Positions 11,795-12,110 of a DNA stretch of 64,000 nt are shown here, in pieces; the stretch's first letter is position 1, and each line of letters begins with the position of its first letter. This DNA comes from Antedon mediterranea (lineage: Eukaryota; Animalia; Echinodermata), in assembly GCF_964355755.1 (NCBI RefSeq), contig NC_092680.1, positions 14,579,045 to 14,643,044 on the forward strand, in the 5' to 3' direction. The position numbers were made by a program, and so were the translations under genes. The notes under the pieces were generated by a model. That model had not been told where the DNA came from. It ran no database searches and was given only the letters and a program-made list of their open reading frames with translations.

Positions 11795-12048
11795 TGTGCT
11801 GTTCGCGATTGATAATTTGTTATGCGTACCGCCCTCTATAGTTTGTCTCCACTGTTCGATAAGTGTTAATGGCGGCTCGGCAGTCACATATATTGTTTTC
11901 ATCTCAAAACGATGTTTTATGCAAGATATTGAAAGAGGTGTCGATTCACACCCTTTTTTACCACACACACACACACACAAACTCAAACGAATAAAGACTT
12001 GGTTATACTGATCGGTGTGATAAATGTTTATTTATTAGTTCCGTGACA
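11795..12048 (+). repeat. 5' LTR of element A (254 bp)
   Basis: Direct repeat of 24706-24967. Inr-like TCACACC at 11946-11952. AATAAA at ~11990. Confidence 0.95.
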
Positions 12049-12110
12049 GTAAAAAAGGGTGATCGATTACATCTACACCAAACCTTGCAGGCAGACGTTA
12101 ATCACTAATC

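Follow-up and report, generated by a model that had tools for sequence, protein, structure and literature searches.

How does a BEL/Pao retrotransposon start reverse transcription when its long terminal repeat (LTR) is followed by no tRNA-type primer binding site (PBS)? The question is raised by a locus of the crinoid Antedon mediterranea in which one such element, the outer element, carries a second one, the inner element, within it. The locus lies in a window of 64,000 nucleotides, meaning the whole stretch of DNA analyzed here, and all features are on its plus strand unless stated otherwise. To our knowledge, BEL/Pao is the least studied of the LTR superfamilies, and its priming has been assumed rather than demonstrated. 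The pairing of the outer element's PBS with its own LTR, the position of that pairing at the LTR edge, its covariation among families and the lack of a TGG site are established. We consider it likely that the element self-primes reverse transcription with its own RNA and not with a tRNA.

The outer element and its primer binding site

The outer element occupies positions 11795-24967 and is flanked by a 5-bp target site duplication, ACAGG, at 11790-11794, with the 3' copy at 24968-24972. Its 5' LTR (11795-12048, 254 nt, TG...CA) and 3' LTR (24706-24967, 262 nt) are identical over 254 of 254 aligned bases and differ by one 8-nt indel within a CA repeat. The gag-pol region (12102-17844), which is split into five reading-frame pieces in this copy, was matched in Pfam to Peptidase_A17 (PF05380, E 9.7e-44) and to rve (E 1.1e-06) and DUF1759 (E 2.1e-04), the latter two under their curated cut-offs. 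The order is that of a Pao-type pol, with the Peptidase_A17 region followed downstream by the integrase and DUF1759 in gag, and the ORF at 13983-17336 contains YVDD and RNase H-type acidic motifs. The polypurine tract is split by the inner insertion into a 5' part (17954-17959) and a 3' part (24699-24705) that adjoins the 3' LTR. With its Pao-type pol, TG...CA LTRs, target duplication and polypurine tract, the outer element is a BEL/Pao element. Among named proteins, those of crinoids come closest (A. mediterranea at 98%, Anneissia japonica at 84%), followed by those of molluscs and echinoderms at approximately 60%.

Several features of the surroundings were also recorded. The element is embedded in a very high-copy short repeat (11725-11794 and 24968 onward) with a depth far greater than its own, and in sequencing-run contigs with loose ends at 11794 the empty site runs on into a high-copy repeat. 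Some run contigs have a variant LTR end that diverges after 12036, which suggests a related subfamily or a solo LTR. Elsewhere, the window contains a tRNA-Val-like gene on the minus strand (29773-29847), among diverged repeats, and tandem arrays at 57411-58410 (35-nt units), 35861-36604 (31-nt units) and 33546-33820 (21-nt units).

The PBS (12049-12061) adjoins the 5' LTR with no spacer, at offset 0 from the LTR end, and is the exact reverse complement of positions 11949-11961 inside that LTR, as the initial annotation had reported. This 13-mer is found only at 12049 in the window and its complement only in the two outer LTRs. Dinucleotide shuffles of the outer LTR reached 13 nt in none of 20,000 trials and 12 nt in one of 20,000. 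Across the window, a 13-nt complement within the preceding 254 nt was present at 57 of 63,640 positions, corresponding to 13 separate events, the one at the PBS included. The 3' C of the complement (C11961) pairs with the first post-LTR base, again as annotated, and no pair forms between the next base and the last A of the LTR. Other placements held as well: TCACACC is found at 11946-11952, the AATAAA poly(A) signal at 11990-11995, 28 nt 3' of the pairing core, and five further pairs across a 3-nt bulge at 11941-11945 and 12062-12066, to which a G-U pair can be added.

No TGG is present at offsets 0-5 after the outer 5' LTR, which agrees with the absence of a tRNA-type PBS noted before and means that the 18-nt PBS for the 3' end of tRNA-Arg or tRNA-Gly, as listed by the ICTV, is not found there. 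When compared with the tRNA-Val of the window, the sole tRNA gene used for this purpose, the PBS matched over 3 nt at most. An Rfam search gave no credible match, the best being at E 0.08 with 16 bits against a cut-off of 65.

The complete 13/13 match claimed for the element holds in this copy and does not extend to its family. Base 12061 is G in this copy and C in the contigs of all four sequencing runs compared (at most two samples, with one contig each over the site); between this copy and the run contigs there are differences at 1 base in 231 and at 3 in approximately 500. Since the other copies carry C, what they have in common with this one is a match of 12 bp (11950-11961 with 12049-12060), the thirteenth pair, C11949-G12061, being particular to this copy. 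The candidate core self-primer is thus the 12 nt at 11950-11961. For a chance change at 12061 to pair as well, we estimate odds of approximately 1 in 500, post hoc and from this single case. We also considered the family C at 12061 as a copied cap G and rejected this as a rule, the base after the core being different among families.

Folding predictions were examined for different RNA 5' ends. A region with its 5' end at 11940 folds better than 200 of 200 shuffles (z -2.81), and one with its 5' end at 11948 does better than all but 6 of 200. For the core helix, the mean pair probability stays at 0.89-1.00 as long as the tested 5' end is 11952 or further upstream, and it collapses with a 5' end at 11955. 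A bacterial promoter and terminator scan, which is unsuited to this DNA, flagged only a local 5-bp hairpin at 11937-11952.

Own-LTR pairing in related families

Relatives were gathered as 80 loci kept of 191 confirmed metagenome loci, to which 5 genome-bin loci and 2 later full contigs were added. The core test set consisted of 13 families, the window's two included, in which the 5' LTR end was fixed by a second copy. Loci with an LTR end that was not fixed, owing to terminal overlaps or other repeats, were left out of this count (L008, L010, L012, L014, L019, L022, L023, L030, L033, L035, L043, L047, L050, L078, L079, L080 and L085), as were L018, L026 and L053, which belong to the same families as L020, L025 and L031. 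The LTR end falls at a contig end in L005 and L034, and the LTR start is not fixed in L007 and L081. A repeat in L017 was tried as an LTR and rejected because it is not one. For each family, the post-LTR bases were scored against its own LTR, either contiguously or across a GT[AG]...YAG junction, with a threshold of 10 nt.

The initial annotation had proposed searching the LTRs of many BEL/Pao elements for complements of their own PBS and comparing the outcome with controls. Done here, this gave scores of 13, 11, 11, 11, 11, 9, 6, 13, 12, 10, 13, 10 and 11 for the 13 families, so that at least 10 nt of own-LTR pairing directly after the LTR was found in 11 of 13, or 9 of 11 without the window's two. 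As controls, PBSs set against the LTRs of other families reached 10 nt in 2 of 210 pairs and 11 in none, and pseudo-PBS positions reached at least 10 nt in 3 of 6,000. Own-LTR complementarity at the PBS is therefore enriched in related BEL/Pao elements, specific to the family and above the controls. The families are related, and so these counts are not independent samples. Below the threshold were L007, at 9 nt, and L015, where the score of 6 becomes 13 nt once one G-U pair is allowed. L098, which was added later, has an 11-nt own-LTR match with an LTR end inferred from a single copy, and in L099, a distant BEL element in which TGG follows a spacer of 4 nt, no self-match is present (5 nt).

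When 49 further loci, some of them in families already counted, were scanned blind, 12 of 9,851 positions were matching sites, of which 10 lay at LTR-like ends and the other 2 elsewhere; the control gave 2 of 14,160 coding positions. At the strict cut-off 38 of the 49 loci had no match, and many of these are without an LTR. An exploratory, looser rescan of 25 loci added cases of 10-12 nt in L028, L035/L036, L038, L061 and L080. Each of three features is present in 16 of the 17 families considered: a helix that ends at the LTR edge, a poly(A) hexamer downstream of it, and a PBS that starts with GT. By these sequence comparisons, the feature is conserved through a broad BEL/Pao lineage.

Searches for further material had mixed yields. 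Among 27 pattern matches in the viral contig collection none was a relative; a search of four genome bins returned 12 matches, with two new loci that could be used. L081, L082, L083, L084, L085, L098 and L099 are animal BEL/Pao contigs in bacterial bins (Sedimenticola, Endozoicomonas, Poribacteria), likely through host contamination. By eye, the similar LTR segments of L034 and L050 differ by two compensatory changes between the LTR arm and the PBS, with one mismatch in L050.

The majority of the matches depend on a predicted intron in the LTR. Contiguous matches are found in 3 of the 13 families (the window's outer element, L006 and L034), and 8 families reach 10 nt only over a predicted intron, with donors that are mostly strong and acceptors that are mostly pyrimidine-rich; L031 scores 10 with its donor inside the LTR. 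The inner element (17960-24698), bounded by identical 857-nt LTRs (17960-18816 and 23842-24698), is an example. The claim that both BEL families of the window share the same geometry has to be amended here, since the inner PBS, which begins with TTT, matches the inner LTR contiguously at offset 0 over 4 nt at best. What stood is a pairing across a predicted 493-nt GT-AG intron (18191-18683): positions 18183-18190 and 18684-18686, brought together at the predicted junction 18190/18684, jointly complement the inner PBS at 18817-18827 over 11 nt. In run X1, the flanks and the unspliced inner LTR lie in one contig without a splice joint; the run behaves like DNA and has no bearing on splicing.

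The inner element was inserted into the outer polypurine tract with a target duplication of GGGGG (17955-17959), and other copies of the outer family without this insertion have a polypurine tract that adjoins the LTR. Its ORF (19216-23691) is open for 1,491 aa and ends past the integrase zinc finger, the integrase core not being matched. Because its LTRs are identical and further insertion sites are present in sequencing runs, the inner element may have been mobilized in trans.

Contiguous-type LTRs are short (236-299 nt), and seven intron-bearing LTRs with both ends fixed come to 264-448 nt after the predicted intron is subtracted. The contiguous types (the window's outer element, L006, L063/L072 and L034) are scattered among the spliced types on trees, on which the internal branches close to the window element have low support. 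When four contiguous-type LTRs were aligned, little homology was evident past the U5 TGGT motif and the LTR end. Repeated loss of the intron is consistent with contiguous LTRs that are as short as spliced remainders and scattered on the tree, and the pattern suggests that the LTR intron was lost or gained repeatedly. The window's short contiguous LTR would then be an intron-less derivative.

A predicted second helix, the transcript start and priming

A second helix is predicted next to the core, with an LTR arm at 11934-11945 that pairs with a leader arm at 12062-12074; its pair probabilities are 0.72-0.86 at 11941-11945 and 0.36-0.49 further 5'. Between the two helices is a TCAC loop (11946-11949); its C11949 is paired in this copy alone, and L001, L005 and L006 likewise have CAC before the core. 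The helix was assessed across 17 families by comparing two 16-nt segments, one upstream of the core and the other downstream of the PBS core, the core lengths being set by hand. Own-family pairing came to -6.3 kcal/mol against -4.2 kcal/mol across families, and none of 20,000 permutations was as strong. Against composition shuffles, 5 of 17 families had p<0.05 (Fisher p 0.001), and the signal weakens when either tested segment is slid off its position.

The signal is confined to the clade of the outer element, which has support of 0.995 and 0.985 in two trees. Exact permutation within the 9 families of this clade, a split made post hoc, gave 3 of 362,880, while the helix is absent from the 8 families outside it (18,864 of 40,320 permutations). 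For the window element taken alone the helix is weak (p 0.03-0.09). In the clade, the LTR sequence used extends as far as 16-22 nt 5' of the core.

These results make doubtful the start at A11948 proposed in the initial annotation: since the second helix lies upstream of the core, the RNA probably starts upstream of that base as well. The five further pairs listed in the annotation likewise fall 5' of the start that it proposed. If the helix forms at the RNA 5' end, the transcript would start at approximately 11934 or further upstream, and the primer would be approximately 30 nt with an internal CAC-containing loop; we place the start, with probability only, near or upstream of approximately 11930. 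In this single case G12061, whose pairing reaches one base into the loop, also fits a second helix at the RNA 5' end. Alternatively, the LTR arm of the helix may come from the 3' LTR, through its U3 tail. Starting the RNA precisely where the core begins was considered as a rule and is unsupported across the families.

With self-priming of this kind, transcription would begin inside the LTR and the 5' part of the RNA would fold back on the leader as two helices and a small CAC-containing loop. Reverse transcriptase/RNase H would cut after C11961, by analogy with Tf1, and free a 3'-OH at the first post-LTR base, from which reverse transcriptase would copy U5 and the remaining R as minus strand, beginning at the LTR edge. 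Plus-strand copying of the primer would then regenerate the PBS, so that the PBS would stay matched to the LTR. Because the PBS and the polypurine tract both adjoin an LTR, the cDNA would end in TG...CA. In the intron-bearing relatives the primer would consume the predicted splice junction, and as a result strong-stop DNA would contain only what lies 3' of it, which would leave the unspliced 3' LTR as a route for inheriting the intron. The broken gag-pol of this copy was counted against self-priming.

The best surviving alternative is a variant of self-priming itself, in which the RNA starts at A11948 or A11950 and its first 12-14 nt are the primer, the second helix being either incidental or a product of 5'-3' circularization, with the 3' LTR contributing its U3 tail. 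This agrees with a 12-nt family match that begins at a purine following a pyrimidine, with the CAC before the core in the four elements named above, and with Tf1, whose own primer is the first 11 bases according to the available portion of PMC7175516. We nevertheless regard it as rather unlikely, given that the second helix covaries in the clade and that a pyrimidine-purine step is present at the core 5' end in only 7 of 17 families. Spliced relatives would also need first exons of 3-10 nt, and G12061 is most simply explained, as a single case, by copying of one base past 11950.

That the duplex is structural or regulatory, serving packaging, dimerization, translation control or the masking of a post-LTR GT splice donor while another primer is used, appears improbable. 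The GT with which the site starts in nearly all families can indeed look like a splice donor, but the inner PBS begins with TTT. The helix also ends at the LTR edge with the same regularity and without a TGG site, the relative that does have a TGG-type site (L099) is without the duplex, and no other candidate for binding a primer is present at the PBS position.

Priming by a tRNA fragment of the host or by another small RNA, with the LTR match secondary, would be in keeping with the ICTV account of Belpaoviridae as primed by tRNA-Arg or tRNA-Gly (PMC8742986) and with the half-tRNA primers known in copia elements (PMC6317226, available portion). It is very improbable all the same, as the PBS varies by family, each matching its own LTR and not those of others, and as neither the window's tRNA-Val nor Rfam offered a match of note. 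The complement moreover contains a run of six U, and tRNAs and other RNA polymerase III transcripts are unlikely to furnish a primer with six consecutive U. A chance match aided by the low-complexity A6/T6 run, in a window with 12 other 13-nt inverted matches, is scarcely credible given the shuffles and the relatives that share the position and covary by family.

Returning to self-priming with the second helix at the RNA 5' end, a broader proposal can be made, which we hold tentatively and with slightly less than even confidence. A large marine-invertebrate and fish branch of BEL/Pao may have swapped tRNA priming for a self-made, tRNA-like bipartite primer of approximately 30 nt (a helix, a CAC loop and a core of 11-13 bp). 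In most families this primer would be built by host splicing of an LTR intron, which would tie reverse transcription to the spliceosome and explain the persistence of the intron. The outer element would be an intron-less descendant and G12061 a fossil of reverse transcriptase overcopying by one base.

Comparison with known systems

Self-priming has been described for Tf1/sushi elements and predicted for Tcn1 and the copia elements TAR, Houba and Osr-1, as given in the available portions of PMC6317226 and PMC4600332. In Tf1, bases 1-11 pair with the PBS, and the RNase H cut falls between bases 11 and 12 (PMC7175516, in part), and approximately half of Tf1 cDNA keeps the copied PBS (PMC11042837, in part). 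The self-priming of Tj1 was inferred from the same type of complementarity (PMC4600332, in part). For the family Belpaoviridae, the ICTV lists an 18-nt PBS for tRNA-Arg or tRNA-Gly, LTRs of 0.2-1.2 kb, a gag-pol in the order PR-RT-RH-IN and a short polypurine tract, and calls replication 'poorly understood' (PMC8742986). Only tRNA priming is listed there for BEL/Pao, self-priming not being among its entries (PMC8742986).

No report of BEL/Pao self-priming was found in the literature searched, which covers few subscription papers and Repbase reports, so that an earlier mention may exist. The main texts of two BEL/Pao surveys (PMC3118150, PMC554778) contain neither 'PBS' nor 'tRNA', and those of two more such surveys (PMC6238403, PMC8556966) contain none of 'PBS', 'primer' and 'tRNA'. 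The available portions of PMC3601003, PMC3286476, PMC6934838, PMC8233318, PMC8220671 and PMC5341516 make no mention of BEL/Pao self-priming.

Compared with the ICTV description of Belpaoviridae and Semotivirus, the outer element agrees in its LTR size range, gag-pol order and short polypurine tract, and differs in that it and its relatives are without a tRNA-type PBS, the distant L099 with its TGG-type site excepted. It may belong to the Sailor lineage (Sinbad, Sparrow, Surcouf), which dominates molluscs and annelids according to the available portions of PMC6238403 and PMC8556966. The hosts of its best relatives, namely crinoids, molluscs, echinoids and fish, fit that lineage, and the trees of the present analysis were built without named references.

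Like TAR, Houba and Osr-1, which are plant Ty1/copia elements, the outer element is a case of self-priming predicted from sequence outside Ty3/gypsy; unlike it, these have the copia domain order and plant hosts, and no LTR intron is mentioned for them in the available portion of PMC6317226. The closest likeness is to Tf1 and Tf2 of Schizosaccharomyces pombe, Tj1 of S. japonicus, Tf1/sushi and Tcn1, all of which lack a tRNA PBS and have a PBS of 11-13 nt at the LTR edge that complements their own LTR. The outer element shares with Tf1 a PBS of approximately 11 nt in this position and a complement that is specific to the family and covaries with it. Unlike the Tf1 group, which is Ty3/gypsy, it belongs to another superfamily (Peptidase_A17, DUF1759); its Pfam and homologue matches are BEL/Pao, and it is thus outside the Ty3/gypsy chromovirus phylogeny of Tf1/sushi. 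Also unlike Tf1, it has upstream of the core a second predicted helix, which suggests that the primer extends past the paired core; many of its relatives have the complement only over a predicted splice junction, and the arrangement is a prediction from sequence. A self-encoded tRNA-like primer has reportedly been proposed for Cer7 of C. elegans, in an arrangement that would differ from that of the outer element.

If self-priming is true of these elements, it would account for PBSs that match no tRNA, and we infer that host tRNA-derived fragments could not target such elements at the PBS. A practical rule for annotation is to search the element's own LTR, both spliced and unspliced, for the complement of its PBS. 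The outer element is a BEL/Pao element that, by analogy, probably works like Tf1; it is not a member of Tf1/sushi. Self-priming, shown in Tf1 and predicted in some gypsy and copia elements, would in that case extend to a third superfamily.
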